DNA of 61,063 nt from an uncultured virus (IMG/VR IMGVR_UViG_3300037418_000253) (lineage: Duplodnaviria; Heunggongvirae; Uroviricota; Caudoviricetes). Positions within the stretch are counted from its first letter, which is position 1. Every line of letters begins with the position of its first letter. The notes beneath the pieces were generated by a model. It was not told the origin of the DNA and did not search any database. It saw only the letters and a program-made list of their open reading frames with translations. Positions 23,881 to 58,254 of the stretch are shown here, one piece after another. The translations under genes were made by a program, and so were the position numbers. The stretch lies in IMG/VR virus record IMGVR_UViG_3300037418_000253; one strand, written 5' to 3'.

Positions 23881-23942
23881 TTCCCGAGACCCTTTCGTCG
23901 TTACGATTGGGGAAAGCTTGGCCCCTTTCGGGGCCGGTGGTA

Positions 23943-24374
23943 TTAGTCGAACTCTGGGCAAATGGTCGCGGTAGCCGCATCGAAAACGATAGAACCGTTG
24001 TCGGGATAAGACCTTTCGACCAGACCGTCAATCAGCCGCTTTTCGACAATCGCGGTGACTTCCTCTTCGCTCTTGCCAGCGCGCAATTCCTTGCAAGCGA
24101 GAAAGCCCGTGGAGCGAATTACCTCTCGCAGGTTTTCGTCAATGTCCCAATACTGGGTAATCGTTCCACCCCAGGGACCGCTAAACTGTGCAGCCATTTC
24201 CAGGTCGAATTCGTCCGTCTGCCTGTCCTTCTTTACCATGGCGTCGTACTTTGCCGACTCTTCCGGAGAAATGGTGTACGTAGATTCCTTGTGCTCGGGC
24301 TTGTCCTCACCGTTGCACGCGGTAAGCGTGAGCGTGGCAGCTACGAGGACAGTGACACAGACAGCCTTACGCAT
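23943..24374 (-). CDS. Putative lipoprotein
   Basis: Signal peptide with LTAC lipobox; C-terminal AC..L...ICPE. Confidence 0.75.
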   Translation of the reverse strand: MRKAVCVTVLVAATLTLTACNGEDKPEHKESTYTISPEESAKYDAMVKKDRQTDEFDLEMAAQFSGPWGGTITQYWDIDENLREVIRSTGFLACKELRAGKSEEEVTAIVEKRLIDGLVERSYPDNGSIVFDAATATICPEFD

Positions 24375-24430
24375 TTGAATTCCCCTTGATTGGAAAGCTT
24401 GCCGGGTGCTCGGTTGAACACCCGGCCGAA

Positions 24431-24799
24431 TTACGCTGCTACCTTACCCTTACGCCGTGCGATTGCACGGGGCGCGTACTCGTTATTCCGCGCCTTACCC
24501 TTTGCGTACCTACGGGCGTATTCCTGCCCCTCAGGGGTGTTGAGCTGGTCAGGCCGAGGAGGAGTCATCACGCCATCGGCATAAACGGTAATCAGGGTGA
24601 ACGTAGTTCCCTTAGGCTTTCCGACCAGGCAAAGCCCATTGCCAGTGACGCGGTATTGTCCCTCGTACTTGCCATTCTTGTAAAGCTTAGCGGGGTTTTC
24701 GAATGTCTCGCGAATCTTCTCAATCGCGAAACCCTTGTCAAGAATCTGCTTAAGAGCGTGGTCGGTAGCGTGGAGTCGGAAGCCCTCAGTGGACTGCAT
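24431..24799 (-). CDS. DUF4258/RelE-like fold protein (putative)
   Basis: TDHALKQI...TLITVY pattern. Confidence 0.55.
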   Translation of the reverse strand: MQSTEGFRLHATDHALKQILDKGFAIEKIRETFENPAKLYKNGKYEGQYRVTGNGLCLVGKPKGTTFTLITVYADGVMTPPRPDQLNTPEGQEYARRYAKGKARNNEYAPRAIARRKGKVAA

Positions 24800-24936
24800 G
24801 GGTATTATTCCCTTCCTAAGCTGGAGAGAGCCTGTCCGCCCTCCCTTATGTCAACCAGAATACGCGAAGGGGAGGGGTCTGGTCAACCCCTCCCCAAGCT
24901 TGACGAGAAATAATCTTGCTCGTCTTTGGCCTTGCC

Positions 24937-25326
24937 CTACCGAGATGTCTCCTTACGGATGAGCGCGGTGGTGCTCGCAAGGTTGTTGTACCTGTCGTCA
25001 TGGTCAACAAAATCCAGGTACTTGTCTAGAGCCTTGGGGCAGTAGACTTCGAATACCGCCGATGTGGCCTTGAGATGGTCGGCATTCTGAATAATCCAGC
25101 CGGGTGGATACCCCTTGAGCATCCACGGGCAATTGGATTCACCGAAATCCTTTACGGTGTCTTCGGTAAGCGTCCAGTCCTGTGTCTGGAATGTAGCTGC
25201 CCAAGCCTCGTATTCCTGGTACTCATGCGAGGGACGGTTATTCCTCAGCACGATGGTCAGTAGCAGAATGACGACGGATAGAACCGCCGATACGATAAGC
25301 CAAAGCCTCCTCTTCTTCATTTCCAT
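24937..25326 (-). CDS. Membrane-anchored hypothetical protein
   Basis: N-terminal TM helix. Confidence 0.7.
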   Translation of the reverse strand: MEMKKRRLWLIVSAVLSVVILLLTIVLRNNRPSHEYQEYEAWAATFQTQDWTLTEDTVKDFGESNCPWMLKGYPPGWIIQNADHLKATSAVFEVYCPKALDKYLDFVDHDDRYNNLASTTALIRKETSR

Positions 25327-25761: not shown

Positions 25762-25840
25762 TCAATCTCCAGGGTCATTTGGTATTACCCGCGAATCCGG
25801 GCAAAGCTTAGCCCCGGTACTTTAATACCGGGGCTAGGTG

Positions 25841-26622: not shown

Positions 26623-26683
26623 CCAATTCCTTTCTTACAAGCTAAAGGGGCCGGGGGATAAACCCCGGCCCCTTAGCCAATGG

Positions 26684-27085: not shown

Positions 27086-27637
27086 CTACGCGGCGGGCTT
27101 GTCCATGATAAGCAGCTCCCCGCCAAGGTACTTCGGAGCAACCGGCCCGTTTGAGCAACCGCAGTAAGCGACACCCTTAGAGCAACCGCCGCACGAGGTA
27201 ACCGCAACAAGCGGCTCAGAAATGAACGGCTTGTCACTCTTGCTACGACGGGCGTAGGTCCAGCCTACCGACTGCTCACGGACCTTAGAGCGAACCTTAG
27301 CGACCCGCTTTACCGGAGCGGTAACCGTACCGTGCGAGGACAGGTAAGCGGTAATAACCTCAGTGGGAATCCGGCCGCGCTTACCCTTCTCAATAGCTCC
27401 GGTCTGCTCAGCCCAAGCGCGAATAGCCTTAGCGTCGTAAGAGTCCCGAGCGGGAGCCTTTTCCTTGACGACCTTCGGAGCCTTAGCCTTAGGCGCGGAA
27501 ACCGGCTTAGCTACGGGCTCATCAAAAACGATGCCCTCGGCAATAGCCTTCTCGATAGCTGCCTTACCCTCAGCCGAGAAACGGCCCTTGCCCGGCTTGG
27601 CCAGACCCTTGGAAACGAGGTAGTCACGCTTGTTCAT
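27086..27637 (-). CDS. lsr2: Lsr2-like DNA-binding-domain protein with Cys-rich C-terminus
   Basis: AIRAWAEQTG...KRGRIPTEVITAY; N-terminal KGRFS; CGGC..YCGC. Confidence 0.75.
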   Translation of the reverse strand: MNKRDYLVSKGLAKPGKGRFSAEGKAAIEKAIAEGIVFDEPVAKPVSAPKAKAPKVVKEKAPARDSYDAKAIRAWAEQTGAIEKGKRGRIPTEVITAYLSSHGTVTAPVKRVAKVRSKVREQSVGWTYARRSKSDKPFISEPLVAVTSCGGCSKGVAYCGCSNGPVAPKYLGGELLIMDKPAA

Positions 27638-27763
27638 TTTTACTCCCGAGATTTCGTTGCCCTGTCCTGCTGACTCTCTAAAGATACAGCATCCCCGGCC
27701 GCGTTGTCCAGCCGGGGAAAAATATGAGGGGCAGTTTTTTCAGTCATGCCCCAGGACTGTACA

Positions 27764-28048
27764 TCATCGGCCGTTGCGGGTGGCCTTGTTCGCCGCGAGG
27801 ATGACTCCGACGCGGGCCACCACCTCGTAGGACACCCGACCCCGCTCCGCCACGGGGATGTCCAGCACCTTGGCCAGCTCGCGGACCTTCTTGGGCTGGG
27901 TCATCAGGTACTCGACCAGGACCTCGGAGGAGACGCGGCCACGGGAGCCGACCTCCAGGTCGTTCTCACGGGCGAACTCGCGGGCCTCACCGGCCAGGGC
28001 GCGAACGTCGATGTCGATGGCGACGGTCTTACGGGTGCTGCGGGCCAT
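27764..28048 (-). CDS. lsr2: Protein made of two tandem Lsr2-type DNA-binding domains
   Basis: AREFAREN.LEVGSRGRVSSEV and VRELAK.L.IPVAERGRVSYEV. Confidence 0.75.
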   Translation of the reverse strand: MARSTRKTVAIDIDVRALAGEAREFARENDLEVGSRGRVSSEVLVEYLMTQPKKVRELAKVLDIPVAERGRVSYEVVARVGVILAANKATRNGR

Positions 28049-28541: not shown

Positions 28542-28963
28542 TTTTACTCCCGAGTCCCGAGTGCCCTTGTGAGTAAGAGCTTAGTCGAAAAGTCTTTACT
28601 TTGTCAACCGGTCTGCTTGGCTTCCGCCGCTTCCCTGCCGACACCCATAAATATACGGGTCCCGGCTTTACTTGGCAAGCCCAAGCTTCATGATTTTTTA
28701 CTCTGTCCGCTATGTCCGGTTGGCGAGCTTTACCCCGGATGCCCGCTCCGGGGTAGTTGAAGCTGAGTGGAGTCTCCCCTTTACGATACCCCCCAAAAAA
28801 TCTCAGGATTTTTTGGTGCTCTTAGGAATACTCCAATTTACATTTCGCCTTTTCTTGACGACACGGAGAGAAAATTCTTCCTCTTCCCATTCCTCGTCTT
28901 CCCAATCAGGCTCTCTAACTCCGAACCAAAGCATGTCCCAGGTTCGTAGCTGACCGTCGTACA

Positions 28964-29353
28964 CTAGGCAGCCTCGCCATCCAGCCAGCCGAAAATCTCC
29001 TCGTCGGAAATATCGACCGTGGCGAACTCCAGCTCAGGCGAGCAATTCACCTCGTCCACAAAAGCCTCGACCGAGCAGGGGTCAAACTCCAGCAGAACAA
29101 AGCCCTCCGGAGACGAAAGACTCATGTAGAGTTTGTGGTTCTCATCGTTCAGCTCGAAATGAACATCACCCTCGCCGGAAAACTCGTTGTCCTCCAGCTC
29201 ATCCAGCAAGTCCTTGGAAAAGGACCACTTGGTCACCTCTCCGGAACCAACATGGAATGCGAACTCGATTGTGTACGGGTCCTTGCCCTCGAAAATCATC
29301 TCAACGGGAACCGGAATGCTGGAGATGTACGCAACCGACTTGAAGTTAATCAT
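28964..29353 (-). CDS. ssgA: SsgA-like protein (SALP family)
   Basis: DPYTIEFAFH..VTKWSFSKDLL...GEGDVHF...LSSPEG matches SALP DPYAV.L.F..W.F.RDLL..G.GDV..LSSP.G. Confidence 0.8.
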   Translation of the reverse strand: MINFKSVAYISSIPVPVEMIFEGKDPYTIEFAFHVGSGEVTKWSFSKDLLDELEDNEFSGEGDVHFELNDENHKLYMSLSSPEGFVLLEFDPCSVEAFVDEVNCSPELEFATVDISDEEIFGWLDGEAA

Positions 29354-29631
29354 TTATCTCTCCCGAGAAAGAAAGCTCTACTGTTCTGCGCGAGCCTGTG
29401 CAGCTTCGTACTTATCGATAATTTCCTGCGCCTGTTCGCGCTTACCGAATCGAGCTACGGAGCTGTGAGTGATGCTGTCCCAGATAGCAAACTGGGTTTC
29501 GGTCCTGCGACCGTGCTTATATGTCTCTTCCTTAATCGAATATCTCATGATGGAAGACTAACATGCCTTTCTTTACCCTGTCAATCAGGGAAGCTTGGCG
29601 GGGTACCCTTTTACGATACCCCGCATTTTTC

Positions 29632-29874
29632 TCAGAAATCTGTGGACCGGCGTCCCGGAAACGGGGGCCGAGGACGGGCCTGAGGCTCAATCTGGAGGCT
29701 CAGAAAATCACCCTTGGACTTTTCATGCAGCTCGTCCCACCACGCCTTAGAAGCCATCTGAGCGCTTCCGATGCTGCCCATCTTTTCCGTGGCGTAGTCG
29801 GAGAAGGCATCGAAGTCCCCGAGGGTAACCCCAGTGTACGCGGTAATGATAGCAGCCTCACGACGAGTAATCAT
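29632..29874 (-). CDS. Hypothetical protein
   Basis: TRREAAIITAYTG family-like ORF. Confidence 0.65.
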   Translation of the reverse strand: MITRREAAIITAYTGVTLGDFDAFSDYATEKMGSIGSAQMASKAWWDELHEKSKGDFLSLQIEPQARPRPPFPGRRSTDF

Positions 29875-30128: not shown

Positions 30129-30220
30129 CGTGTTTCCCTCGGTCGTTTGCCGTTGAGAAAAATATACACCCGGCCGAGAGCGGGTGTCAAGCTTGCCGGG
30201 CGAGGCCCGGCAGAAAAAAA

Positions 30221-30352: not shown

Positions 30353-30425
30353 GTGATTCCCCTTTACGAAGCATGTGAATAGTCTCAGGATTTCTGAGAA
30401 GCTTGCCCCCTTTCGGGGGCCGAGG

Positions 30426-31218: not shown

Positions 31219-31425
31219 TATTCCTCCTGTTTGCCGGGACCCTTCCCAGTTGGAGAAGCTTGGCGGGTTTCCCCGCCATTCGCAATGGTTACTCGTAACG
31301 GTCTGTCTTATGCTTCGCCTTGCGCTTGTACTTCTTCTTGCTCGGAATGGGCTGGGCACGAGAACCCCGCCGCAATTCCAAAATGTGCTCGTATCGTTCC
31401 TTGGCGTTAGCCATTGCATTCCCTT

Positions 31426-31968: not shown

Positions 31969-32299
31969 TTAATCCTCCCGAGATATGGCAATGATTGGAA
32001 AGCTTGGCCGGGTTGCCCCCGCCGGTAGTAGAGATTATTGCACGACCACCCCGGCTCGCACAACCCAGTGCAGATGATTATTTATGTCTCCCTTGCCGAG
32101 CCCTACGGCATAGGTCAGAACGTGCTTGTTGCGGAGCCTGACGGCCCGCTGACGGGCGAACTTGACGGTCTGCATACTTCCTAGCCTCCGAGGTTAGTTA
32201 GGTCGTTAGAAAGGCGTACAGAGGCTCGCTATCAGCAGCCGTCCCGAAGGGTGCCCTCGGCGTGCATGTCGTCGTCCTCATCGAAAATGTCGAACATAA

Positions 32300-32608: not shown

Positions 32609-33045
32609 AGCCCCGGATATTGCTCTTTATAGAACGAATATCCGGGGCTTTAGTACGCTACCATGATTCGAACATGGAATCTCTGACGTTGGACCGCCAG
32701 CGCATCAAACCCACTAATGCTATCAGCGCACCCCTCACCCCTTTATCGTTTGCAACCGATGTTACGGTCACTCATATTCGCGACTATGAGGCCGCAATCC
32801 GGGGGTCAACGGGAAGTTTTCGGCCCACCCAGTTAATTCTGGTCCTCCGGGATTTATGGTCCCGACGTGCTTTCGCCCTTTAGAGGACGCCTATACACCA
32901 GTAGGCTAGCTTGCTCCTAAGGGAGCAGATATTTATATATTATACTATATTGTTTATTGAGCTTGGCCGGAAGTGGGAGACTGAGTGCGCCACTCCCGGC
33001 CGTTGTGCTTACCTAAAATATACTACCGGACATGTTCCCTGTCAA

Positions 33046-33375: not shown

Positions 33376-33519
33376 TTTTTCCTCCGTGGTTGACTGATAC
33401 AAGCTTGCCAGACCGAAGTCTGGCTGTCAAGCCTTAGGCACCGGCTTGAACTACTGCGTAACCAATAATACACAGTAGCGCGAGAAGGAACAAGGCCAGC
33501 ACCGCTGTGCCCTGTCCTC

Positions 33520-33987: not shown

Positions 33988-34090
33988 TTCTCCTTGCTCC
34001 GGTAAACCACGCCGGTATGGGTTGATTGGTTTTGCTTGGGGTAAGCTAAAGGCCCGGCCGATAAGCCGGGCCTTTGTCTACTATTATACC

Positions 34091-34626: not shown

Positions 34627-34676
34627 TTTTTATCTCCAGTGTCGGAAGCTTGGCCCGGATAACCCGGGCCGGGGCA

Positions 34677-34910: not shown

Positions 34911-34967
34911 TTTTTTTCTCCCAAGGTAGATTAGTGGGAAGCTTGCGGGCCTTTCGGCCCGCCGTTT

Positions 34968-35417: not shown

Positions 35418-35682
35418 AGGTCCTCTTTCCCGAGAAGGTGTAACCATCATAATGGAGGACGCTTGGAGCGTCAAGCTTGCCCGGAATAACCGGGCGGTAG
35501 TGCTAGTGGTTGAGCGCTACGAAAATCATACCAGCAGCAGGCACCCAAGCGATAGCGGTAACAGCGAGAAAGAAGAAAATCATCGCCACGTTGACCTTCA
35601 ACTTCTCCCAGTCGGACATGGCCGCGTAAGCCTGCTCCCACTCCGCCTCGGTCAGGTGCGAGTAGTCCTTCATTATTTCTCC

Positions 35683-36045: not shown

Positions 36046-36101
36046 TCCCGAGTCCGTTCTCTAGCTTTGCCGGGCTTGTCAGCCCGACAACAAATAATCT
36101 A

Positions 36102-37089: not shown

Positions 37090-37127
37090 AAAAAACCCCG
37101 AAAGACTCTGGCGGAAGTCTTTCGGGG
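37090..37127 (-). terminator. Intrinsic terminator in 5' leader of DUF2637-like gene
   Basis: CCCCGAAAGACT-TCCGCCAG-AGTCTTTCGGGG + T run. Confidence 0.85.
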
Positions 37128-37153
37128 CTATCGCGAAATACGAGATTTCGAAG

Positions 37154-37180
37154 CTATTGTTTGTTTGTCCGCCAGAACAT
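37154..37180 (-). CDS. Leaderless uORF / leader peptide MFWRTNKQ
   Basis: ATG 6 nt below -10 TATGAT; stop TAG 37154-37156. Confidence 0.5.
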   Translation of the reverse strand: MFWRTNKQ

Positions 37181-37186
37181 GCTTTA

Positions 37187-37216
37187 ATCATATCAGGCGG
37201 CAATAGCGAATGTCAA
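37187..37216 (-). promoter_or_regulatory. HrdB/sigma70-type promoter
   Basis: TTGACA-N18-TATGAT. Confidence 0.8.
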
Positions 37217-37264
37217 TAGCTTGCACCCCTCCTTTACGAAGGGGTGCGAAAATCTCAGGATTTT

Positions 37265-37854: not shown

Positions 37855-38109
37855 CTACTCCTTGAAGGTCCAACACTCGCAATACTTGCAGCCTATCGGC
37901 TCCATGCCGTCCCATGAATCAAAATGCCGGTAGTAAGAATGACCACAGAGGCAAGGTGCATCCTGGTCACGGTTCTCATCCCATAGCCGCTCAAGCTGAA
38001 CGGTAAGAGCATGGGTGAGCAGAATCATTTCGTTGCTCGGAATATCCTTTACGATATCCCGCAGTTTCTCCGCCTCTTCCTTGGTGAAGCGGATATCTAC
38101 ATGACCCAT
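37855..38109 (-). CDS. Hypothetical protein with Cys/His C-terminus
   Basis: CLCGHSYYRHFD...GCKYCEC. Confidence 0.75.
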   Translation of the reverse strand: MGHVDIRFTKEEAEKLRDIVKDIPSNEMILLTHALTVQLERLWDENRDQDAPCLCGHSYYRHFDSWDGMEPIGCKYCECWTFKE

Positions 38110-38150
38110 GAATCCTCCTTGGGTAAGCTTGGCCCTTTCGGGCCAGGAGA

Positions 38151-38453
38151 TTACTTCTCGTCAACGTACTTGACGACGGTAACCTCTCGGGGAATAACCC
38201 GGACCAGCCGACCATCCCACTCGGGGGTGTCCCACGAAGTGTAATAACCGTACTTTCGGAAATACTCATCCCCGACCTTGAACAGAATCCACTGCTCGCC
38301 GCTGTCCTCGGGCTCATAGTCCTTTACGAATTCCGCGAACTCATCCAAGGTGGGAAGGTAAATCTCCCGCCGCTCGATTGTGTCGTAGAACTCGTCCGGG
38401 TAGCTGGCGTACTTAGCCTTGATAGCCTCGTCAACCTGCTCAGCAGTATACAT
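38151..38453 (-). CDS. Hypothetical protein, paralogue family A copy 2
   Basis: LFKVGDEYFRKYGYYTSWD. Confidence 0.75.
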   Translation of the reverse strand: MYTAEQVDEAIKAKYASYPDEFYDTIERREIYLPTLDEFAEFVKDYEPEDSGEQWILFKVGDEYFRKYGYYTSWDTPEWDGRLVRVIPREVTVVKYVDEK

Positions 38454-38608: not shown

Positions 38609-38675
38609 TATTCCTCCTAGTAGTTTCGAACCCTTTCGAATACCAGGAGTAGCTTGCCCCTTGCGGGGCAGAGAA

Positions 38676-39727: not shown

Positions 39728-40106
39728 TTCTGAGCCTCCTCGAACCTCCGAGCCATCTTGCGCATCGCCGCGCACCAGCCGTAATAGTATTCCCAGCCAT
39801 AACTCTCGCGAACTCGCGGACCGGCTTCCTTAATTTCCTTCTCAACTTCTTCGATAGTCATGACCCACATCCTTGAATCGACATTGGGAAGCTTGCCCGG
39901 CCGAAGCCGGGCCTCTTTATCGAGTCACAATGCCCAAGATGGTAACAGCCGTAGCCATAACCAGTGGGAACATTCCGATTCTAACCGAACTGTACTGACC
40001 GCTTCTCACAAGGTTGAAAGCTAGCCCAACAAGCACTATCTGCCAAACCAAGAAGAGACAGGCGAGTACGAAAAGGATAAGGCTGACAGTGCTCATTTTC
40101 GCTCCT

Positions 40107-40382: not shown

Positions 40383-40475
40383 ATGCTATATACCTACTCT
40401 CCTTGTTGTTATTTTCTTTCTTTTTTCTAGTTTAACGAGCTTGCCAGGAGGTTGTCAAGCCTCCTGGCCAAATTG

Positions 40476-40988: not shown

Positions 40989-41044
40989 TTTATTCCTCCT
41001 GAAACGCAAAAAAGCCGGGGGATTTCTCCCCCGGCCGTCCGGAA

Positions 41045-41221: not shown

Positions 41222-41434
41222 TTTACTCCGCGCTTTCAAGTTCCTGGTGTCGGTGCTCAAGCTCTTGCCCGTTCATCCAGAGAACAAGGTATGAATGGTA
41301 CGCCATTCCCAGCTTAACGAGAGTGACTGTACCAGTGATTAGCGGATTACTCTTGAGAGCCACACGGTCTCCACGCTTGAAGCGCATATCATTCTCCTTA
41401 ATAGGGAAAGCTTGGGGCCGAAGCCCCAACTGGA

Positions 41435-41779: not shown

Positions 41780-41831
41780 ATTATCCTCCATGTTAGGTAA
41801 GCTTGCCGGAATATTTCATCCGGCATGGCGA

Positions 41832-42704: not shown

Positions 42705-42755
42705 TGTTTCCCTTTCGTAGATTGGAAGCTTGGCCCCTTTCGGGGCCGAACCAGA

Positions 42756-43181: not shown

Positions 43182-43235
43182 ATGATATATCTCCTGTTGG
43201 TAGGGAAGCTTGCCGAGATTTCTCCCGACAGACGG

Positions 43236-43493: not shown

Positions 43494-43543
43494 TTTGGTC
43501 TCCTTAGTTGGAAGCTTGGCCAGTTTAACCTGGCCGGTGGTGC

Positions 43544-43786
43544 TTAGTCCAGCTCATGGAGCGGGATAATAAAGCTGAACGACTCATTATCCATGGTCTG
43601 GCTTGTGTAAGCAGAACCGTAGCACTCGATGCCGATGCTTGTAAAGCCCAGCGTAATGTCCGACTCCGTGATAGCGAATCGAAGCCAGGCGTCGGAACCC
43701 ATCAAGGCTCCATTATTTCGCTTGGCAATCTCCAGGCACTTCTCCCGGAGGTCGTTGTAACCGGCGATAATTTCTTCGAGGTCCAT
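43544..43786 (-). CDS. Hypothetical protein
   Basis: ORF between hairpin elements. Confidence 0.7.
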   Translation of the reverse strand: MDLEEIIAGYNDLREKCLEIAKRNNGALMGSDAWLRFAITESDITLGFTSIGIECYGSAYTSQTMDNESFSFIIPLHELD

Positions 43787-43834
43787 GATAAACCCTTCGT
43801 AGGGAAGCTTGCAGGGCCGAAGCCCTGCACGGTC

Positions 43835-44899
43835 TTACTTGTTGTTCACGTCCGGCTTTACCGCGTCCCACAGCATGTCACTGATGGACTTGCAGTCTAG
43901 CAGAGCGAACAGATAAGACATATAAGGAGTCTTCTTTGCTGCAAGAGCGAACTCCTTGCGAGAAAACCCGGCCGGAATATCGTGGATAACTTCGACGTAA
44001 GCCTGGGTTACCTCGTTCTCCAGCTCGTTGTACTTAGAGTACAGCACCTCGGCCACATCCACAACCCAGTCGTGCCACTCGTCGGGAATCATCTCGCAAA
44101 TATCCCGAGCCGACTTGCCATCCTTAAGCTGAGACCACACAGAACGCTCGTTCAGGTTGGTCACGATGCGGTGCAGCTCGACATAATCGACCTGCTTCAA
44201 CTTGACCATGCTATTACCCGAGCGAATTACCAGGCCCTCAGCATTTTCCCTGTGGACGCCGAAGCAGTCGTTAAGGGAACGGTAGCGGAAGACCTCGGTA
44301 ACGGGGCCGGTCCAGTTCATGATGCCAGCCGCCTGGTTCGGACCCCAGTAATAACCCCGCTCGTTATCGACAGCACCCAGAAGAATCAGGTCGTCCATGT
44401 CACCGTAGTTCAGAACGATTCGGTTCTTCGGATAAACAATCTCAAAGAGGAACGTGGTGTCCTTGAGGGGCTTCACAATGTGACTGTACTTGTCGTTAAA
44501 CAACTTCGTCGCGTGAATTGCCTGTTCCGAAGTAAAGGACCCTCGGGTGGCAATTGCATAATCGCCGGTTACCGGGTTCCGGTAAAGAATACCCAGCGAA
44601 CCGTCCTTCTTATCGGTCACCTCAACCGGCGCATCCGTGTCGAACAGAAGCGGACGCTCACCGAAGTTGAAGAACTTCTTCCAAGGCCGAGCTACAACAA
44701 AACCATCGTGGTCAATAATCAGGCCACGGCAGTTCAGCGTAACGTCGTTCCACATCCTGTCGAATTGCGCTTTTTCTGTGTAACCAAGGATTACCAGAGG
44801 CGCATCCGGGTGCGGGTTCACTCGGACATAGCCGTTCTCAATCGCCTTCTCAAGCTCATCCGTTGAGAAGATTTCAGAAACGTGAACCATTAGACTCAC
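43835..44899 (-). CDS. rnlA: RNA ligase (T4 Rnl1-like)
   Basis: CRGLI, KFFN, DKKDGSLGI, ATRGSF, FEIVYP.NRIV, EGLVI, VKLK..YV.LH. Confidence 0.92.
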   Translation of the reverse strand: MSLMVHVSEIFSTDELEKAIENGYVRVNPHPDAPLVILGYTEKAQFDRMWNDVTLNCRGLIIDHDGFVVARPWKKFFNFGERPLLFDTDAPVEVTDKKDGSLGILYRNPVTGDYAIATRGSFTSEQAIHATKLFNDKYSHIVKPLKDTTFLFEIVYPKNRIVLNYGDMDDLILLGAVDNERGYYWGPNQAAGIMNWTGPVTEVFRYRSLNDCFGVHRENAEGLVIRSGNSMVKLKQVDYVELHRIVTNLNERSVWSQLKDGKSARDICEMIPDEWHDWVVDVAEVLYSKYNELENEVTQAYVEVIHDIPAGFSRKEFALAAKKTPYMSYLFALLDCKSISDMLWDAVKPDVNNK

Positions 44900-44949
44900 T
44901 CCTTAAATCCATAAAAATAAGCCCGTGACCTTATTGCCACGGGCTTAAG

Positions 44950-45036
44950 CGGAGAGAACGAGAGTCGAACTCGCAAGGGCTTTTACACCTCAACACCTTA
45001 GCAGGGTGTCTCCGTCACCTGTCGGATTGCCTCTCC
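44950..45036 (-). tRNA. tRNA-Ser(GCT)
   Basis: ACACC-CTGCTAA-GGTGT, long variable arm, G discriminator. Confidence 0.9.
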
Positions 45037-45052
45037 ATGCCCTTTCGGGCTG

Positions 45053-45412
45053 TTAATCCAAGAATAGCACAGACTCACTGGAGCTGACAAGTCGTCGCCG
45101 CGTCCTGTCCTTATGGCAGTTGGCGCAGACAACCTCACACTTTTCGATTTCCGCCTTGACCTCATCGAAAGAGTGTGTTCGATACATACTCGAAATATTG
45201 CCCAACTTGGTACCTCGAACGTGGTCGAATTCGAGAACCCAGTATGGATACTCTATACCACAGTCGAGACAACCCTTAGCCTGCTTATATTCTTGAATAT
45301 AGCGCGTAACCAAATTTCTCCGGTCACGCGCTACTTCCTTAACCTTTTCCTTATTTGCTTCGTAATACTTGCGCTGGGCTGCGCGCTGCTGTTCCTTATT
45401 CTTGTATGGCAT
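45053..45412 (-). CDS. HNH endonuclease
   Basis: CLDCG..LEFDH...CEVVCANCHKDRT. Confidence 0.88.
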   Translation of the reverse strand: MPYKNKEQQRAAQRKYYEANKEKVKEVARDRRNLVTRYIQEYKQAKGCLDCGIEYPYWVLEFDHVRGTKLGNISSMYRTHSFDEVKAEIEKCEVVCANCHKDRTRRRLVSSSESVLFLD

Positions 45413-45457
45413 ACATTTATTATGCCATGGTTCGAATTATGAAGCGGATTCGAACCC

Positions 45458-45700
45458 TTAGAACCCGCGCAACTTCAAGTGGCCGTAGAGATAGACTAGC
45501 ATATCCCAGCCGCCGATGCTGATGGGCAGACTGCCCGGTCCCTTTTCCTTCATGACCATCTCGGGCGTCCAGTCGGGGCCGTACTCGTCCTTCACCCAGT
45601 CACGGATATAATCATCTTCGATATAATCGTAGAGCGCGCCCAGCTCCTCAAGCGTACTCTCGTTGATATCGAATACGTCTCGGCTTGGAATAAAACTCAA
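45458..45700 (-). CDS. Hypothetical protein
   Basis: Coupled ORF. Confidence 0.7.
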   Translation of the reverse strand: MSFIPSRDVFDINESTLEELGALYDYIEDDYIRDWVKDEYGPDWTPEMVMKEKGPGSLPISIGGWDMLVYLYGHLKLRGF

Positions 45701-45945
45701 ATTCCCATCCTGCTCTTGAGTCGCTGGCTAATAATACCAGTCCGTGGACGGTTCAGATAGCTGTTGTTGAAGTCGGACGGGACAAGCTTACGACCAATCC
45801 GGCCCTCAACGTGCTCTATACAGAGCATCCCATATTTTCCGAGCCCGGTCAACCGCCAGGTCTCGTCAAGAAGCATGTAGTGCTCACCGATTTTCCCGGT
45901 GTCCACCCGGCAGTCCAGGCAGAGGAACTTGCGTCGAGAAGCCAT
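45697..45945 (-). CDS. Hypothetical protein (CLDC..EHYML..W..LCIEHVE.RIGR.L...DF)
   Basis: Zn-binding motif family. Confidence 0.75.
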   Translation of the reverse strand: MASRRKFLCLDCRVDTGKIGEHYMLLDETWRLTGLGKYGMLCIEHVEGRIGRKLVPSDFNNSYLNRPRTGIISQRLKSRMGI

Positions 45946-46246
45946 TATGCCCCTTTACGAAAGCGCGTCAAAATCTCAGGAATTTTTTAAAAGCTCGCGG
46001 GGTTCCCCCCGCACCGTTATTACTTGTCGATGCAGTTGCCATCAATCCACTGCTTGTCAGCCTTGATGCACTGAGTATACCGCTTGTCGTAACGAACGTT
46101 GCCATCCCGCAGGTTTAATCGCCATGCTGGTGAACAGGCTGATAACCAGAACAACCCCAGTCGCATAGACTGCGATAAACTTCCAGTTCTTCATTTTTCC
46201 TCCCAGGTTGGAAAGCTTGGGTGGTTCGCATGAACCACCCGCAGAC

Positions 46247-46570
46247 TCAGGAGTCAAGTTCCTGGAGAATCTGAATCGCGGTGCGACCCTGAATCTCTCG
46301 CGTCTGCTCACCGTTCTCGAAGTATAGTACGGTCGGAACCGTCATAATCGGGAAGGTGTTGCGGATATCTTGGTCGGCCTTATCAATATCGACCTTAACA
46401 AAGCGTACCGCATCATTCTTTTTTGCCGCAACATCAATGTGTGGGGCAAGCCTGCGACAGGGGATACACCACGAAGGCGCGTGGAAGTCTACCACAACCT
46501 TATCGTGGCCATTGAAAATCTCCTGCAACTGCGTCAGCGTTGTCGCCTCAACGACATTATCACTCGCCAA
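46247..46570 (-). CDS. trxA: Thioredoxin
   Basis: VVVDFHAPSWCIPC, VKVDID, TVPT; start uncertain. Confidence 0.88.
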   Translation of the reverse strand: MASDNVVEATTLTQLQEIFNGHDKVVVDFHAPSWCIPCRRLAPHIDVAAKKNDAVRFVKVDIDKADQDIRNTFPIMTVPTVLYFENGEQTREIQGRTAIQILQELDS

Positions 46571-46988
46571 AGGGAACCACAACCTCCTTAATCTTGATAC
46601 CCGGCACGTCCTTGTTGGACTCCAGGAACGCCTTGACCGCTTCATCAAGGCTACCGGCCGAAACCTCGGCCTCAAACTCTACCGTAGCTCGCACGGTAAA
46701 CTTCTTCTGCTCCACCGCATTCTCCTTCTGAATATCAACCGGTCGAAGGGTCACGTCCTGCCGACCCTTACCGAACTTGGTATCGTACTTCCCGCGAATC
46801 AGGGAGTTGTAGGTGTCGCCCGCAGAATATCCGTCACCGAAGTAGTCAAAGACATCCTGAGGAACATCAAGGTAGATGTATGAATTACCGTGAGCATTCA
46901 CAACCAGCTCCTTGGTGTTCTGGTTGTAGTAAATCCCAGAAATCCACGAGCTGACAGGACGGTTGGCGTGCGTGAACTCGAAAATCAT
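46560..46988 (-). CDS. KTSC-domain protein
   Basis: SSWISGIYY...YIYLDVP...SAGDTYN..IRGKY. Confidence 0.75.
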   Translation of the reverse strand: MIFEFTHANRPVSSWISGIYYNQNTKELVVNAHGNSYIYLDVPQDVFDYFGDGYSAGDTYNSLIRGKYDTKFGKGRQDVTLRPVDIQKENAVEQKKFTVRATVEFEAEVSAGSLDEAVKAFLESNKDVPGIKIKEVVVPFGE

Positions 46989-46989
46989 T

Positions 46990-47229
46990 TCAGTCCTCCA
47001 GGGTGCCAGTGTACACGAAAACGTCGATTACGCCTTCGCGCTTCTTAAAAATAAGCCGCCCAACTTCGAGCTGGGCGTTTTCCGACTCCTCAGAGTCTAG
47101 CACTTCCTTGGCCTTGGCGATAGCCCGCTCAAGGTCGTCCTCGTTGGGGACGACCATACCATAATCGAACTTCCATTCCCAGTTATTTACCAGGAACGTT
47201 GTCGCTAGGCTGTCTGCTAGGTCGCTCAA
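46990..47229 (-). CDS. Hypothetical protein
   Basis: Packed ORF. Confidence 0.7.
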   Translation of the reverse strand: MSDLADSLATTFLVNNWEWKFDYGMVVPNEDDLERAIAKAKEVLDSEESENAQLEVGRLIFKKREGVIDVFVYTGTLED

Positions 47230-47264
47230 ATATTCTCATCTCCAGTTCTTCCCATGTCAAGGGC

Positions 47265-47483
47265 TCAGAACGTGTCTCGTCGGATTCCGATTTGTCCGTG
47301 ACCAATTCCACCAGACTTCTCCTTGACCTCAACGCTCAATACATCGGCGGAGTTTTCAACAGAAGCCACCAGAGTGGCGATTCGACCGTACAGCTCCGTC
47401 ATGTTATCGGCATCAATCTTGAGCGTCAACACGACGGTCTTGCTTGTGGCCTTGGGATTCTCGGCCTTGGTTTCCTTAACCAT
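47265..47483 (-). CDS. Hypothetical protein
   Basis: RBS AAGGAGG. Confidence 0.7.
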   Translation of the reverse strand: MVKETKAENPKATSKTVVLTLKIDADNMTELYGRIATLVASVENSADVLSVEVKEKSGGIGHGQIGIRRDTF

Positions 47484-47539
47484 GGTTACCTCCTTATTAT
47501 ACCAAGCTTGCCGGGGCATATCAACACACCCCGGCGAAA

Positions 47540-48142
47540 TTATGCAGCAGCAGCGTCTATAAACTGCTTAATCGCCGTCAGGTTGGTCCGGAAATCCTTT
47601 TCCTTCTCAAGGTGTTCCAGGCCAGGACGACCACGACGCTGAAAATTCTTACAGTCGGCTGCCGTCCACGCTTCACTAACGATACCAAAAGTAAAGCGCA
47701 TGGGCAAGTAGCGGCCACCGCCGCGCTTCTCAAACTGATGATATCGCCTGTGCTCGGCAACGGCTAGACACTGGACCGCGTACAAAAACGTCTGCGGATG
47801 TAGGGTACTCTCCCAGTCCCCACGCTCCCAGGAATATTTCTCGGGGTCTGCACCAAAAACCACGGCTGCGTAGTCTGCCATCAACCGCTCCGCAGACTCG
47901 GAATCGAGCTGGTGCTTCTTCTCCATATCCAGAAAGATATCGTCATGCGTGAACTGGTGATTAACCCATCCGAGATTATCGTCGGAAACCATAACCACAA
48001 AGTCACCACCGGCCGGAACCGTATCGTGCTGGTGCCTCCCTGGCATGGCGAGGGTTACCGCATTATATGGAGCCATCGTAACGGCATGGTTCTTTCCGCC
48101 AGTCGCATACGGGATAAGGTCGTGTAGTTTCTCGAAGTTCAT
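47540..48142 (-). CDS. Hypothetical protein (200 aa)
   Basis: Long ORF, no recognised motif. Confidence 0.8.
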   Translation of the reverse strand: MNFEKLHDLIPYATGGKNHAVTMAPYNAVTLAMPGRHQHDTVPAGGDFVVMVSDDNLGWVNHQFTHDDIFLDMEKKHQLDSESAERLMADYAAVVFGADPEKYSWERGDWESTLHPQTFLYAVQCLAVAEHRRYHQFEKRGGGRYLPMRFTFGIVSEAWTAADCKNFQRRGRPGLEHLEKEKDFRTNLTAIKQFIDAAAA

Positions 48143-48212
48143 ATTATTCTCTCGTTCGGGCAACAAAAAAGCCCGGCGAACCGGGCTTAGCTTGCCCCGA
48201 AGGGCAAAAGGT

Positions 48213-48789: not shown

Positions 48790-48790
48790 G

Positions 48791-52105: not shown

Positions 52106-52216
52106 GCCTCAAGTATAACCGGCGCCACATTAAAAGTCCAGCTACTACCCAGAGTGACGGATTTGTAAACATATTCACAAAAAGCTTTAGGGTGGTCTAA
52201 TGACCACCCTAAGAAT

Positions 52217-52656: not shown

Positions 52657-52885
52657 CGGTGACTCCCATAATGTGGCAGTTGACTTCGGACCTAATTGCA
52701 TCTCTAAGTTGATAGAGATATTCAGCAGCCGCCAATTTCTGAGGCTCGCTGAAAGACTCGACATTGTCCTTGTAAACACGCAATGCAAGGAAGTCTGGAT
52801 ACTCTACAGCATCCACGATGAATCCAGGGACCGGGCACTTCATCGTCTTGAAGATTTTCTGGACCGCAAGAGTATATTTACTCAC
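52634..52885 (-). CDS. Hypothetical protein
   Basis: GTGA overlap with whiB. Confidence 0.75.
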   Translation of the reverse strand: MSKYTLAVQKIFKTMKCPVPGFIVDAVEYPDFLALRVYKDNVESFSEPQKLAAAEYLYQLRDAIRSEVNCHIMGVTDAPPGRR

Positions 52886-53190
52886 ATTACCCTCTTACGG
52901 ATTTCTACCCAGACCTCTTCGGTCTTGTGGGAATTCCGGTTCTTGTCTGGCTTACCAGCACCATTCCAGTATACCCCGCCCCAGGTTCCGTACTCACCAT
53001 CAGACCCGGCGAAAAAACATTGTCTCATGACCGGACACCGTAGGCAAGCCTGGTCGGTAGCCTTTGCTGTCTCGCTGTCTGACTCGTACTTGTCATAGAA
53101 CAGCTCGGTTGGCATGTTAGCGCACAGAGCCAGGTCTTGCCACTCAAAATTATCCGGGTCGATACCTAGTTCATCGAGAAGACTTGACAC
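52882..53190 (-). CDS. whiB: WhiB-family Fe-S transcription factor
   Basis: WQDLALC...LFY...CLRCPVMRQC...YGTWGG. Confidence 0.92.
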   Translation of the reverse strand: MSSLLDELGIDPDNFEWQDLALCANMPTELFYDKYESDSETAKATDQACLRCPVMRQCFFAGSDGEYGTWGGVYWNGAGKPDKNRNSHKTEEVWVEIRKRVM

Positions 53191-53410: not shown

Positions 53411-53550
53411 AAGTAAATAAACCCTTCTAGTTGCTTAATCTGCCTTGTACAACTATGTTAACATTTCGCAATAGCTAATGTCAACACAAAAGCTAAGGGC
53501 CGAAGAAATTCTTTCGAAAATCTTCGGCCCTAGGGCTTTAAAATTAAGGC

Positions 53551-54823: not shown

Positions 54824-54882
54824 ATTTCCTCCTCCGAGTATACTGATAAAAAAAGCTTGGCCCCCCGAAGGGGCCGTAAGGC

Positions 54883-55962: not shown

Positions 55963-56016
55963 TCCAAAATTCGAACTTGATGGGAAGCTTGGCCCCTTGC
56001 GGGGCCACCCCGTATG

Positions 56017-57939
56017 TTACTTATTCAGAGTAGCATACTTGGCATTGATGTAGCAATAGGCATCCTCAACGTCCTGGCGCTGGAGACCAGACACCAACGG
56101 ATAATTGGCAAGCGCGTCCTTATCCGTCGTGGCGTAGATATTCTTGATGATACCAGTCGTCACACCGTTGTTGATAGAGTGCCAGGTGAAGTAACGCTTA
56201 GCCCGGTCGGAACCATCGCGGCTCTTTACGAAGCCAATGATATTCGACAGCATCGGGTCATCAATCCGGCTCGGGTCGAGCTGGAGGAGTACGTTACGAG
56301 TGTAGTGGTTAACCGACAGGAACGTCAAGTCCTCCTCAGTCAGCCCACCGATAATCTCGTTGATAAGTTCCTGGAGAACTTCCTCAAGGCCCTTGGCATT
56401 CGGGAACGTCTTCTTGAAGGCGTCCCACCGGCTGTGAGTAAGAGTAACAACCGCAGTACCCGGCCGCAACTCCTCCAGGCGCTTCTTATCATCAGCACCC
56501 ATGAAATTACCCGGCTTCGCCAGAACGATATCCGTGTGCGTGATTTCGTCCTTGGTGAGATATTGCGACTTGCCGTCAAAGTAGATTTCGAATCGCGGCT
56601 TCGAACGAGGAGCACTCGCCTTCTGCCGAACAATCTTAACCTGCTTAACGTCCTCCCACTTCACGATATTGGTCGGAACCCAGTCCGGAATTTCCGGCAG
56701 CTCGTCACAGATAAACATGTAGGAAGAACCCTCGGCATTCTCATTCCGCCACGCCCGCATCTTCTCACGGTGAGTCGGAGCAACCTTCTCGCTCGGGTAA
56801 CCGAAGATAATCGGAGTCTTCGGAATACTACGAACGTCCAGCCGGTGAATGTCGCTCACGGCGTAACGAGAGGCGTTCGTGTTGTACTGCATACCGTCTA
56901 CCTTGACAACCGTCTCCAGCTCGGAGCCACGGTACTGAATTGTAGAAGGCATCCGACTACGGGAACCATACCCGCCGCCGAAAATATCGTTCCACTCGTA
57001 GTAGGCGTTAAAAGCCTCCCACTCGCTGTCCTTTGAGTCAATATCCTCCTGGACAACCTTGGGCAACCGGTCGTTCACAATCGCCTTGAGATTGCTAATC
57101 GTTGCCTCGGTACGACGAGTGTAATGCAGGGCCTCACGAGAAGGCGTGAAGTTCACCGAGCCGATTTCCACGTAGGCAACAATTGCCCAGCGCTTCCAAT
57201 AGCTGTTGCCCTCGGACAGAGAGTGCTCGCCATCCAGAGGGTACGCCACGTTGCCCATGACGAGGTAGTCAGAGGAAATGTCACGGACCAGAAAAACACC
57301 CGGCGAGATTTCCTTGCCATCGAAATGCTCGGGCTCAGAGCCGTTAACCAGGACTGTGCCAGCCTTCCAGAAACGGAAGAAGTCACGGGACTTGCGCTCG
57401 AACTCGTTGCCACGCTTGACCGGAACAACCACCTCAACACTGTTCGGCTCATCGGTCGCAGAAGCGTCGATAATCTCCATGACGCCAGAGCCGTCCTCGG
57501 TACGAGAGACAGCCACCATGTACTTAACACCATCCTTGACCGTGTTAAGCGTGAACTGCTGCGTATAGGTCAGAGCTGACTTGCAGCCAAGGCCCAGCAT
57601 ACCCACAACGTCATCGGAATTACGCTTGGTGGAAGCACCGTACTTCGAGTAGATATTCTCAATGTCGTCCGCGTCCATACCAAGGCCATAATCCTTGACC
57701 TTGAAAAACGGGGAAAGCGCATTCGGGGTAGTGACCTCAATGGGTCGAGAAACACCCGCCGCAACGTGAGAGTCAAGGCCGTTGGTGCTGTATTCCCGAA
57801 TTACAGCCAGCTCGGGGTCGGAATACAGGTCCGTAAGAACAGACATGAGATGTGCCACGCTGTTCTCATCGAACATCATCTTGTGCTCGACACCGCCAAG
57901 GTTACCCTCACGCTGAGCAACAATCGTGTTCGGTCGCAT
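56017..57939 (-). CDS. rIIA: rIIA-like protein (GHKL ATPase N-terminus)
   Basis: LYSDPELAVIREYSTNGLDSH, KDYGLGM, YGASTKR, GMLGLGCKS, FTPSREALHY. Confidence 0.92.
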   Translation of the reverse strand: MRPNTIVAQREGNLGGVEHKMMFDENSVAHLMSVLTDLYSDPELAVIREYSTNGLDSHVAAGVSRPIEVTTPNALSPFFKVKDYGLGMDADDIENIYSKYGASTKRNSDDVVGMLGLGCKSALTYTQQFTLNTVKDGVKYMVAVSRTEDGSGVMEIIDASATDEPNSVEVVVPVKRGNEFERKSRDFFRFWKAGTVLVNGSEPEHFDGKEISPGVFLVRDISSDYLVMGNVAYPLDGEHSLSEGNSYWKRWAIVAYVEIGSVNFTPSREALHYTRRTEATISNLKAIVNDRLPKVVQEDIDSKDSEWEAFNAYYEWNDIFGGGYGSRSRMPSTIQYRGSELETVVKVDGMQYNTNASRYAVSDIHRLDVRSIPKTPIIFGYPSEKVAPTHREKMRAWRNENAEGSSYMFICDELPEIPDWVPTNIVKWEDVKQVKIVRQKASAPRSKPRFEIYFDGKSQYLTKDEITHTDIVLAKPGNFMGADDKKRLEELRPGTAVVTLTHSRWDAFKKTFPNAKGLEEVLQELINEIIGGLTEEDLTFLSVNHYTRNVLLQLDPSRIDDPMLSNIIGFVKSRDGSDRAKRYFTWHSINNGVTTGIIKNIYATTDKDALANYPLVSGLQRQDVEDAYCYINAKYATLNK

Positions 57940-58002
57940 TGGTTTTATTCTCCCTTTTGTTGGAACCAATGGGCAGCTTGGGGCAAGTGCCCCTGTAGAA
58001 GG

Positions 58003-58194
58003 TTACCAGATATCCCAGTCACCGTCACTGTGCTCGATGATGGCAAACCCGCCGAAAACAATCACGAGCCAAACAATCTCGATGATGATGAATGGGATTG
58101 TCTTTCCCATCTTGCCATCAACGATAATCCAGGTGATTCCAGAGAGGCCCGTCGCGAAGACTGCCTTCAAAAAAGCCTCGTACAACCAATGCAT
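58003..58194 (-). CDS. Membrane protein
   Basis: Two TM helices. Confidence 0.65.
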   Translation of the reverse strand: MHWLYEAFLKAVFATGLSGITWIIVDGKMGKTIPFIIIEIVWLVIVFGGFAIIEHSDGDWDIW

Positions 58195-58254
58195 ATTAAC
58201 ACCTTCTTCCTGGGGAGCTTAAAGAGGCTCCAGCGAACCAGAGCCCCTTTAGTT

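Follow-up and report, generated by a model that had tools for sequence, protein, structure and literature searches.

A variable hairpin joined to a fixed AAGCU tail at the gene junctions of a Streptomyces phage lineage: a candidate site of message processing

In the uncultured virus record IMGVR_UViG_3300037418_000253 of IMG/VR, a stretch of 61,063 nucleotides referred to here as the window, many gene junctions carry an element in which a GC-rich hairpin of variable sequence is followed directly by AAGCU(U). Forty such elements were counted between positions 23914 and 59837, all on the minus strand, with T/G-AGCT variants and weaker stems included. The element is a real, strongly selected and lineage-specific RNA element, and the analysis establishes its anatomy, its strand, the selection on its stem at the level of RNA, the invariance of AAGCU and its distribution among lineages. 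The way in which it works is something that we infer: there is about an even chance that it is an intercistronic signal at which the phage message would be cut and its upstream part protected, and within that reading host ribonuclease E (RNase E) is favoured over other enzymes.

Read along the minus strand, the layout is a stop codon, a few bases, the GC-rich hairpin, AAGCTT, a short spacer, a Shine-Dalgarno (SD) sequence and a start codon. The window contains 41 copies of AAGCTT, as compared with 16.05 +/- 3.64 in 100 dinucleotide shuffles, none of which reached 41. The copies lying outside elements number about 16, which is the chance expectation, and on that ground avoidance or enrichment of a restriction site was rejected. 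When a copy of AAGCT was called hairpin-adjacent if the upstream 33 nt folded at -10 kcal/mol or below and the stem ended within 1 nt of the motif, 33 of the 100 copies on the minus strand were of this kind, against 4 of 96 on the plus strand. Over the 942 minus-strand positions behind strong hairpins AAGCT was the commonest 5-mer (30 copies), and the next unrelated one was TTTTT (15 copies), which reflects ordinary terminators. The initial annotation had named a result that would speak against the whole idea, namely that AAGCT is no more frequent beside hairpins than elsewhere, and these counts point the other way.

The same annotation had listed 22 AAGCTT sites beside inverted repeats, and all of them are present, each directly 3' of a hairpin with a folding free energy (dG) of -10 kcal/mol or below. 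The two stems that it described as weaker, at 29591 and 43206, do form hairpins (dG -18.5 and -9.6 kcal/mol), and its 11 NAGCT variants were all verified, the one at 48188 being weak (a 4-bp stem with a UUCG loop, then AAGCUA, then a canonical terminator). It had placed the system at about 35 junctions from 23914 to 58250; the named sites hold, but five further sites fit (59805, 53490, 52182, 28725 and 24896), so that the elements number 40 and reach beyond that end. Its remark that no U-tract follows the stem is true of most copies and fails for those at 54853, 52182, 45991 and 53490, which continue into U-runs. A spacer and then an SD sequence were found as described, but the spacer has no fixed length of 10-25 nt, since the distance from motif to start codon runs from 15 to 183 nt. 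Over the 40 elements dG spans -6.7 to -27.0 kcal/mol; most hairpins measure 14-37 nt overall and have stems of 5-14 bp, and it is outside the stem that the conserved part is found. In a position matrix, where AAGCT is fixed in the window by the selection of copies, C stands at -1 in 26 of 33 copies in the window and in 49 of 55 in the related phage Muntaha, and the sixth base is T in 24/33 and 39/55 respectively. Beyond the sixth base the window matrix shows a weak YCC-A, giving a consensus tail of AAGCUUYCC.

The hairpin is under selection as sense-strand RNA. Among 180 hairpins from the window and four relatives, in which orthologs were included so that the copies are not independent, and for which G-U and A-C were scored alike, the stems held 1424 Watson-Crick pairs, 36 G-U, 1 A-C and 14 others. 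Because an A-C here is a G-U on the opposite strand, this asymmetry names the strand. The loop is of 4 nt in 105 of these hairpins and of 3 nt in 8, and on the mRNA strand the 105 tetraloops include 49 GNRA and 28 UNCG, as against 0 and 1 in the antisense reading. Taken by itself the window has a GNRA or UUCG loop in 20 of its 40 elements, in agreement with the earlier observation that GAAA, GCAA and cUUCGg loops are common. A DNA cruciform or an antisense RNA was ruled out by the 36 G-U against 1 A-C and by the loop types. The proposal that this is a structure-plus-sequence RNA signal on the minus-strand transcript is thus borne out by the pair asymmetry, the RNA tetraloops, compensatory changes in the stems and the invariant AAGCU.

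The last two of these were seen when 37 window elements were searched for orthologs in Muntaha, Circinus, Ankus and Byblos. AGCT was found within 8 nt of the aligned position in 74 of the 75 comparisons that span the site, where chance would give it in an estimated 7% or so of cases, and the orthologous stems were often wholly different; that stems vary freely while the tail is fixed, as had been noted from the window, is also true between phages. In an identity profile of 70 pairs anchored on the motif, an anchoring which itself forces positions 1-4, AAGCT was 97-100% identical, the sixth base 84% and position -1 81%. Identity was 0.31-0.69 from -30 to -5, 0.67-0.83 over the last four stem bases, 66-74% from +6 to +9 and 34-60% farther downstream. 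In 18 ortholog pairs of the same geometry, 121 base pairs were unchanged, 31 had changed on both sides yet remained paired, 11 had changed on one side by way of G-U and 0 were lost, as counted with a helix picker that prefers paired solutions and is biased against detecting lost pairs. Hairpin length or placement differed in 51 of 69 ortholog pairs. Judged from these alignments, AAGCU is under strong constraint and persists where, as often happens, the hairpin is resized or replaced. A covariance model was made from 11 copies that share one geometry, namely a 6-bp stem, a tetraloop and the tail. At E <= 0.01 it gave 22 matches in the window, of which 21 lie on the minus strand, and the check on related phages that the initial annotation had proposed returned 114 matches at E <= 0.05 in 324,551 bases, 111 of them on the coding strand.

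The closest matches of the window are Streptomyces phages of about 127 kb in the subfamily Loccivirinae, family Stanwilliamsviridae, and they assign it to a Streptomyces phage of that subfamily. Against window positions 40000-47900, Muntaha and Wakanda have 78% identity over 82-83%, Circinus and BillNye 81-82% identity over 78%, and Ankus, Byblos and DekoNeimoidia 75-77% identity. The window is oriented opposite to the relatives' records and the genome end lies within it, its first 12 kb being the counterpart of the Muntaha left end, including ribonucleotide reductase and a LysM endolysin. In Muntaha, covariance matches number 30 in 90-127.5 kb, 5 in 45-90 kb and 0 in 1-45 kb, the structural module, and 55 strict elements were counted there, nearly all of them in 75-119 kb with a few in the replication module; Circinus has 26 covariance matches, Ankus 26 and Byblos 27. 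The 50-kb right arm of Birchlyn (Boydwoodruffvirinae) has 0 covariance matches, and a scan of that arm on its own terms showed no motif prominent behind hairpins. IMG/VR was also scanned with a pattern that describes one common form of the element, and at least 119 stretches were found. At least 12 of these are rich, with 7-16 elements in 10 kb or less and nearly all on one strand, and the other 107 have 0-2 elements among the matches listed. Two rich stretches were compared further; one matches Faust, Sham, TunaTartare and Blueeyedbeauty, and the other matches Annadreamy itself. The genera placed by NCBI under Loccivirinae are Annadreamyvirus, Faustvirus, Gilsonvirus, Wakandavirus and Wilnyevirus. 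From these comparisons the element looks like a trait of the subfamily Loccivirinae.

With respect to genes, crude open reading frame (ORF) calls give 91 junctions on the minus strand from 23000 to 60000, and 31 of them hold an element; where the gap measures 46-80 nt this is true of 23 of 29 junctions, and where it is 25 nt or shorter, of 0 of 27. The stem begins a median of 7 nt behind the stop codon, at 3-15 nt save in two cases, and the next start codon follows the motif at a median of 29 nt. Promoter-like sites, taken as sigma70-like sequences with at least 10 of 12 matches and scored within -21 to +47 nt of an element, abut or overlap 8 of the 40 elements, and 8 of the 20 such sites on the minus strand lie at elements; the motif is upstream of the complete promoter in 6 cases and within its spacer in 2. 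As these 8 elements are upstream of a promoter or overlap it, they are not part of the downstream transcript. The short stop-to-stem distance, the variable distance to the start and the promoters behind elements tie the element to the 3' end of the upstream gene, where it belongs, and not to the start of the next. The remaining 32 of 40 have no promoter-like site in range, and a role of AAGCTT as a general promoter -10 or -35 box was therefore rejected. With 20 strong promoter-like sites on the minus strand against 31 of 91 junctions that hold an element, most elements lie inside operons. Canonical hairpin and U-tract terminators occur separately in the same arm (41036-41013, 37129-37094, 49142-49117, 44947-44918 and 48188-48169), and the only whole elements that pass the U-tract rule are those at 52212-52187 and 54875-54859. 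Since the arm has its own promoters and canonical terminators, hairpin-AAGCU is something else or at least a second class.

We propose that the small-gene arm would be transcribed by host RNA polymerase from the sigma70-like promoters into polycistronic RNA, in which a very stable hairpin would form 3-15 nt past the stop codon at about a third of gene junctions. An endoribonuclease, most likely host RNase E, would then cut the AAGCUU, presumably single-stranded, behind the hairpin, probably between G and C (AAG|CUU). The upstream message would end in the hairpin and a tail of 3 nt (AAG), a barrier to 3'-to-5' exonucleases; the downstream one would begin about 20-30 nt ahead of its start codon, and each gene's mRNA would gain a lifetime of its own, as with the RNase III sites of phage T7. 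Term-seq in Streptomyces is reported to place 3' ends at a median of 4 nt from the stem base (PMC12207403). The host enzyme is the likeliest since AAG|CUU agrees with RR|CNU, the preference of mycobacterial RNase E, which is reported to have been measured both transcriptome-wide and in vitro (PMC10641625). The two purines (-2 and -1), the C at +1 and the U at +3 are all present, so that every specified position is matched; a fixed 6-mer would match RR|CNU in some register by chance with a frequency estimated at about 3%. In addition, the least conserved position of the motif, the sixth, is the position of the weaker U preference in RR|CNU. In mycobacteria more than 90% of 3,344 cut sites are reported to carry C at +1, with an enrichment of such cuts between co-transcribed genes (PMC6448022). 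Pfam found no RNase, sigma factor or RNA polymerase among 98 window proteins, and the Muntaha annotation holds none of these and no RNA-binding family; the failure of both to give an RNase favours a host enzyme. In coding sequences (CDS), AAGCT is mildly depleted on the sense strand (26 copies as compared with 36.8 +/- 3.8 in synonymous-codon shuffles), while its reverse complement AGCTT is not (32 as compared with 34.8 +/- 4.2), and the depletion lends a little further support to cutting.

There are also points that weigh against cutting by RNase E. Five near-invariant positions suggest a reader more specific than this enzyme, and RR|CNU was measured in mycobacteria, not in Streptomyces, with a preference described as weak outside the C (PMC10641625). 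Where the E. coli enzyme has F67, the mycobacterial one is reported to have Val (PMC10641625). The motif has a mean pairing probability of 0.18-0.63, as compared with a background of about 0.5 and 0.99 in the stem; being near background, it is not clearly single-stranded. RNA with a 5'-monophosphate is described as the preferred substrate of mycobacterial RNase E (10.64898/2026.04.06.716707), and as the cut would leave the downstream message with such an end it would come at a cost to the phage. The same source gives about 27 nt as the shortest substrate of that enzyme. Because Streptomyces terminators are U-poor, the anatomy of the element also fits termination, and several elements run into U-runs or abut promoters, as true terminators would. 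Finally, the junction and CDS counts rest on a crude ORF-picking script.

The rival that follows from some of these points is a U-poor ("I-shaped") intrinsic terminator or attenuator for host RNA polymerase with AAGCUU as a release or pause sequence, an explanation which we consider possible but on the whole unlikely. Partial stopping at the junctions might then produce an expression gradient or insulate units, with read-through raised later by a phage antitermination factor. A "HS-U-lack" class, of ends behind a strong hairpin poor in U, is reported to make up 353 of 1,427 3' ends in S. clavuligerus (PMC8269248), and Streptomyces terminators to have 3-4 U in the first 10 nt and ends at a median of 4 nt from the stem (PMC12207403). 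The promoter-like sites that follow or overlap 8 of 40 elements, themselves 8 of 20 such sites, have the layout of a terminator-promoter cassette, and the four elements that continue into U-runs favour termination as well. However, an invariant AAGC directly behind the stem, where U is expected, is unexplained by known intrinsic termination, and ordinary U-tract terminators are used in the same arm, one of them directly behind an element. Moreover, runs of about 4-6 elements stand between promoter-like sites, and efficient termination would silence the genes downstream; as most elements are inside transcription units, they would not be efficient terminators unless a factor restores read-through. 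Mycobacterial RNA polymerase reportedly requires a U-tract in vitro, a result ascribed to Czyz et al. in 2014 that also counts against a terminator. Another explanation, which we hold to be doubtful, is that a protein encoded by the phage and dedicated to the task binds or cuts at the hairpin base and AAGCU, which would amount to a lineage-specific RNA code; the many unnamed small proteins might conceal such an endoribonuclease, translational repressor or antiterminator. The conservation (five positions at 97-100%, C at -1 in 26/33 and 49/55) is sharper than the flanking preferences of RNase E. The element was found in one subfamily only, in the window, Muntaha, Circinus, Ankus and Byblos and in IMG/VR loci matching Annadreamy, Blueeyedbeauty, Faust, Sham and TunaTartare, and is absent from the right arm of Birchlyn, which belongs to a sister subfamily with the same host genus; 72 of the 98 window proteins scanned are without a Pfam family. 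Yet no candidate emerged, RNase and RNA-binding families being found neither in the window by Pfam nor in the Muntaha annotation; the sample of Boydwoodruffvirinae is a single genome arm, and the absence from Birchlyn may reflect tight gene packing that leaves little room for intergenic hairpins.

A role at the level of DNA, in which AAGCTT and the GC hairpin would be recombination hot spots and mark the boundaries for exchange of gene cassettes, had been named as the alternative from the start, and we regard it as very improbable. Of 185 BLAST alignment ends from four relatives, 58 fall within the 6.5% of the region that lies -40 to +30 nt of a motif, which amounts to 1.71 ends per element as compared with 0.59-0.64 per other junction, although this clustering is partly due to the fast divergence of the stems. 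Of the 116 element junctions that were informative, 73 show a break in synteny; the figures for other junctions are 58 of 122 where the gap is 26 nt or more (Fisher p = 0.019) and 42 of 94 where it is shorter (Fisher p = 0.004). The excess is modest, 63% as compared with 45-48%; turnover is high at element-free junctions too, and the comparisons are not independent since the four relatives are mutually related. The different geometry of 51 of 69 orthologous hairpins suggests replacement of whole hairpins, but a conserved run of six to eight bases offers scant homology for recombination, and the G-U/A-C asymmetry, the RNA tetraloops and the strict strand polarity would not be expected of a DNA recombination site. 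Gene shuffling may be a by-product of the elements. Three further candidates were rejected. Processing of a tRNA-like structure by RNase P or RNase Z was set aside by inspection, as there is no CCA beside the stem and the hairpins are unlike an acceptor/T-arm minihelix. The N4-type hairpin promoter is a DNA hairpin with a 3-nt loop used by a virion RNA polymerase; here 3-nt loops occur in 8 of 180 hairpins, the G-U/A-C count points to RNA, and no RNA polymerase was found in the Muntaha annotation or by Pfam in the window. Pairing of the tail with the next SD sequence was also considered, since the tail after AAG is C/U-rich (CUUYCC) and its complementarity to the next SD is -4.08 kcal/mol as compared with -2.23 +/- 0.46 for random 8-mers of the window (0 of 500 reached it). 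The tail's own letters when shuffled give -4.00, and 41% of shuffles reach the observed value; as the shuffled tail is equally complementary, the effect is one of composition only, and the tail may have an anti-SD-like composition.

The general kind of signal to which the element would belong is already known, both as intercistronic hairpins with a nearby endonuclease site and as the PeSL cassettes of T4-type phages; what is new is a fixed AAGCU tail joined to a free stem. In the early transcript of phage T7, RNase III sites are long imperfect duplexes cut within the stem, and a 3' hairpin stabilises the upstream message. Those sites are likewise intercistronic signals in polycistronic phage early RNA, but the stems of the element are of 5-14 bp with no duplex of about 20 bp, and its conserved part is the sequence behind the stem. 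Extra-stable tetraloop hairpins between phage cistrons are found in T4 as well, where Tuerk et al. are said to have described in 1988 C(UUCG)G and GNRA intercistronic hairpins in mRNAs without a fixed sequence tail. The canonical ("L-shaped") terminator shares the GC-rich hairpin and differs in the U-tract directly behind its stem. The actinobacterial RNase E sites resemble the element in that AAG|CUU fits their motif, and they are reported to be enriched between co-transcribed genes and in 5' UTRs (untranslated regions) (PMC6448022, PMC10641625). They were mapped in Mycolicibacterium smegmatis and M. tuberculosis, which are of the same phylum as the phage host. In those accounts the known sites are weakly defined beyond the C at +1 and are not described as coupled to hairpins, whereas the Loccivirinae element has five near-invariant bases that always abut a stem. 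PeSLs are described as a strong sigma70-like promoter with a transcription-terminating stem-loop (PMC2839356). They too are many small cassettes with a stem-loop between non-essential genes, lie in plastic regions and are linked to gene shuffling, but only 8 of 40 elements have a promoter, and the fixed AAGCU is absent from PeSLs as that source presents them. The U-poor 3'-end hairpins of Streptomyces share a strong GC hairpin, few U and ends near the stem base, and the portions of the two reports at hand mention no conserved tail for this host class (PMC8269248, PMC12207403). The host 3' ends lie at a median of 66-76 nt from the upstream CDS (PMC12207403), as compared with a median of 7 nt past the stop codon for the hairpin of the element.

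No named element of this kind had been recognised when the window was first annotated, and this stands. No Rfam family corresponds to it, and no description was met in the literature searched, which left subscription journals mostly outside and included the preprint on Ankus and Byblos, where the words terminator, hairpin, promoter and repeat are all absent. A search of the whole window with Rfam at gathering score gave 12 matches, all to transfer RNA (tRNA), and for positions 38000-48000 at E <= 1 it gave one tRNA (tRNA-Sec model) and two sub-threshold chance matches, one of them overlapping the element at 43805. Should the cut prove real, the element would offer a clear example of polycistronic messages being punctuated by a phage of Actinobacteria and would supply a defined, strong substrate for an actinobacterial endoribonuclease. 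The bolder suggestion that Loccivirinae phages run a dedicated mRNA punctuation code, with a phage protein as yet unrecognised that reads the stem base and AAGCU and cuts or caps the message gene by gene, strikes us as rather unlikely; if true, its logic would be like that of Cas6 in CRISPR-repeat processing or of mitochondrial tRNA punctuation, and new for phages of Actinobacteria. The 40 natural copies described here and the more than 100 in relatives, with free stems and a fixed tail, are a ready-made mutational series. They offer a handle on the role of the U-less 3'-end hairpins of Streptomyces and on how sequence and structure direct actinobacterial RNase E, and a part of about 25-40 nt (hairpin and AAGCUU) could find use in the engineering of Streptomyces, to insulate operons or to stabilise messages.

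The individual elements are given below in descending coordinates, all on the minus strand, with hairpin length, loop where noted, dG in kcal/mol and tail, the tail being AAGCUU where no other is named. The element at 59805..59837 (28 nt, GAAA, -25.4, AAGCUA) has orthologs in 4/4 relatives and is followed by those at 58215..58251 (32 nt, UUCG, -18.9, AAGCUC) and 57974..57993 (14 nt, -9.2, AAGCUG), the latter preceding the rIIA-like gene. For 55985..56007 (18 nt, GCAA, -14.9) the support includes the covariance model. At 54853..54875 (17 nt, -12.8) the tail continues into a U-run, at 53490..53531 (36 nt, GAAA, -24.5, UAGCUU) a U-run and then a sigma70-like promoter follow, and at 52182..52211 (24 nt, -17.6) there is again a U-run. 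The weak hairpin at 48188..48206 (UUCG, -7.9, AAGCUA) has a canonical U-tract terminator directly behind it (48188-48169), and that at 47504..47535 (26 nt, -18.1) overlaps a promoter with its -35 in the loop and TGgTATAAT past the motif. An element without further marks at 46213..46240 (22 nt, -15.6) is followed by one at 45991..46012 (16 nt, GGAA, -12.6, GAGCUU) that runs into a U/A run and then a promoter. Next come 43805..43829 (20 nt, UUCG, -15.5), behind the RNA ligase gene, 43512..43535 (18 nt, -11.3), 43206..43230 (20 nt, GAAA, -9.6), again with support that includes the covariance model, and 42726..42747 (16 nt, GAAA, -13.3), ahead of the polynucleotide kinase gene. They are succeeded by 41799..41825 (22 nt, -12.1), 41408..41428 (16 nt, UUCG, -11.2), 40437..40468 (26 nt, -17.6, AAGCUC), which has a conserved TTGACA in its loop, 39889..39912 (18 nt, UUCG, -15.4), 38650..38670 (16 nt, GCAA, -11.6, AAGCUA) and 38125..38145 (16 nt, GAAA, -11.6).

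Continuing along the arm, the element at 37217..37247 (25 nt, -19.1, AAGCUA) abuts a TTGACA-18-TATGAT promoter, and after 36062..36089 (22 nt, GACA, -16.0, AAGCUA) that at 35473..35495 (17 nt, -11.6) overlaps a TTGACG-17-TATGAT promoter. Then come 34939..34962 (18 nt, GAAA, -15.8), 34646..34670 (19 nt, -14.8), 34043..34074 (26 nt, -21.5, UAGCUU), 33401..33424 (18 nt, UUCG, -11.8), 32959..33001 (37 nt, -23.5, AAGCUC) and 32000..32023 (18 nt, GCAA, -11.6). The top match of the covariance model (35.2 bits) is 31256..31278 (18 nt, GAAA, -14.2), and the model is also part of the support for 30399..30420 (16 nt, GAAA, -13.3). The element at 30189..30212 (19 nt, -15.3) overlaps a TTGACA-18-TATATT promoter, that at 29591..29624 (27 nt, -18.5) has a 1-nt gap before its AAGCUU, and that at 28725..28755 (25 nt, -16.2, AAGCUC) has a promoter 47 nt downstream. 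The series closes with 26639..26674 (30 nt, -27.0, UAGCUU), 25804..25836 (28 nt, -21.4), a weak hairpin at 24896..24924 (-6.7) that is followed by a second strong hairpin and is a doubtful member, 24395..24426 (26 nt, -21.4) and 23914..23935 (16 nt, GAAA, -13.3), for which the covariance model again adds support.

Two of these elements, at 40443-40468 and 47510-47535 (-), carry a -35 box in the hairpin loop (TTGACA and TTGATA) and a -10 box just past the motif, and the TTGACA loop of the former is kept in 4/4 relatives, unlike other loops. Behind the element at 37217 (37090-37216, -) the TTGACA-18-TATGAT site has an upstream TG, and about 90 nt on lies the terminator 37129-37094 with a U-run, after which there is a second promoter-like site ahead of the next gene. 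The stretch of about 93 nt behind this element folds at -31.5 kcal/mol (z = -3.9), its sole scripted ORF is of 38 amino acids, and its promoter region is kept in 4/4 relatives; it may be a small RNA or a leader.

In the small-gene arm that bears the elements every gene is on the minus strand. The Pfam families found there, among the 98 proteins of the window that were scanned, are an rIIA-like ATPase, phosphoesterase, WhiB, thioredoxin, T4-type RNA ligase, polynucleotide kinase, NADAR, SprT, NlpC/P60, SsgA-like and Lsr2-like proteins. Several of them are homologs of host developmental or nucleoid regulators, namely an SsgA-like protein (28967-29353), two Lsr2-like proteins (27089-28048) and a WhiB-like protein (52885-53190), all on the minus strand. 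The window has 14 tRNA genes. One ARAGORN call at 32652-32731 (-) is a tRNA whose type is undetermined and whose anticodon has two bases (cc); it is absent from the Rfam matches at gathering score. A phage-encoded transfer-messenger RNA (tmRNA) is annotated beside the tRNA clusters of Muntaha (29457-29736) and Circinus (3336-3631); the window's share of the tRNA cluster (60092-60529) consists of four tRNAs and stops short of the place equivalent to the tmRNA. The public sequencing runs listed for window positions 38000-47900 are 9, all of them DNA metagenomes. Other families of hairpins were seen behind stop codons in the terminal region at about 15-19 kb (18318-19181 and 16418-16841, -), where AAGCU elements are lacking save for doubtful ones. 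Three of these are long hairpins, at 18326, 18680 and 19181, each followed by AATGCGCAG, and two others, at 16432 and 16841, terminate in GCTATGTCCGCTAGG.

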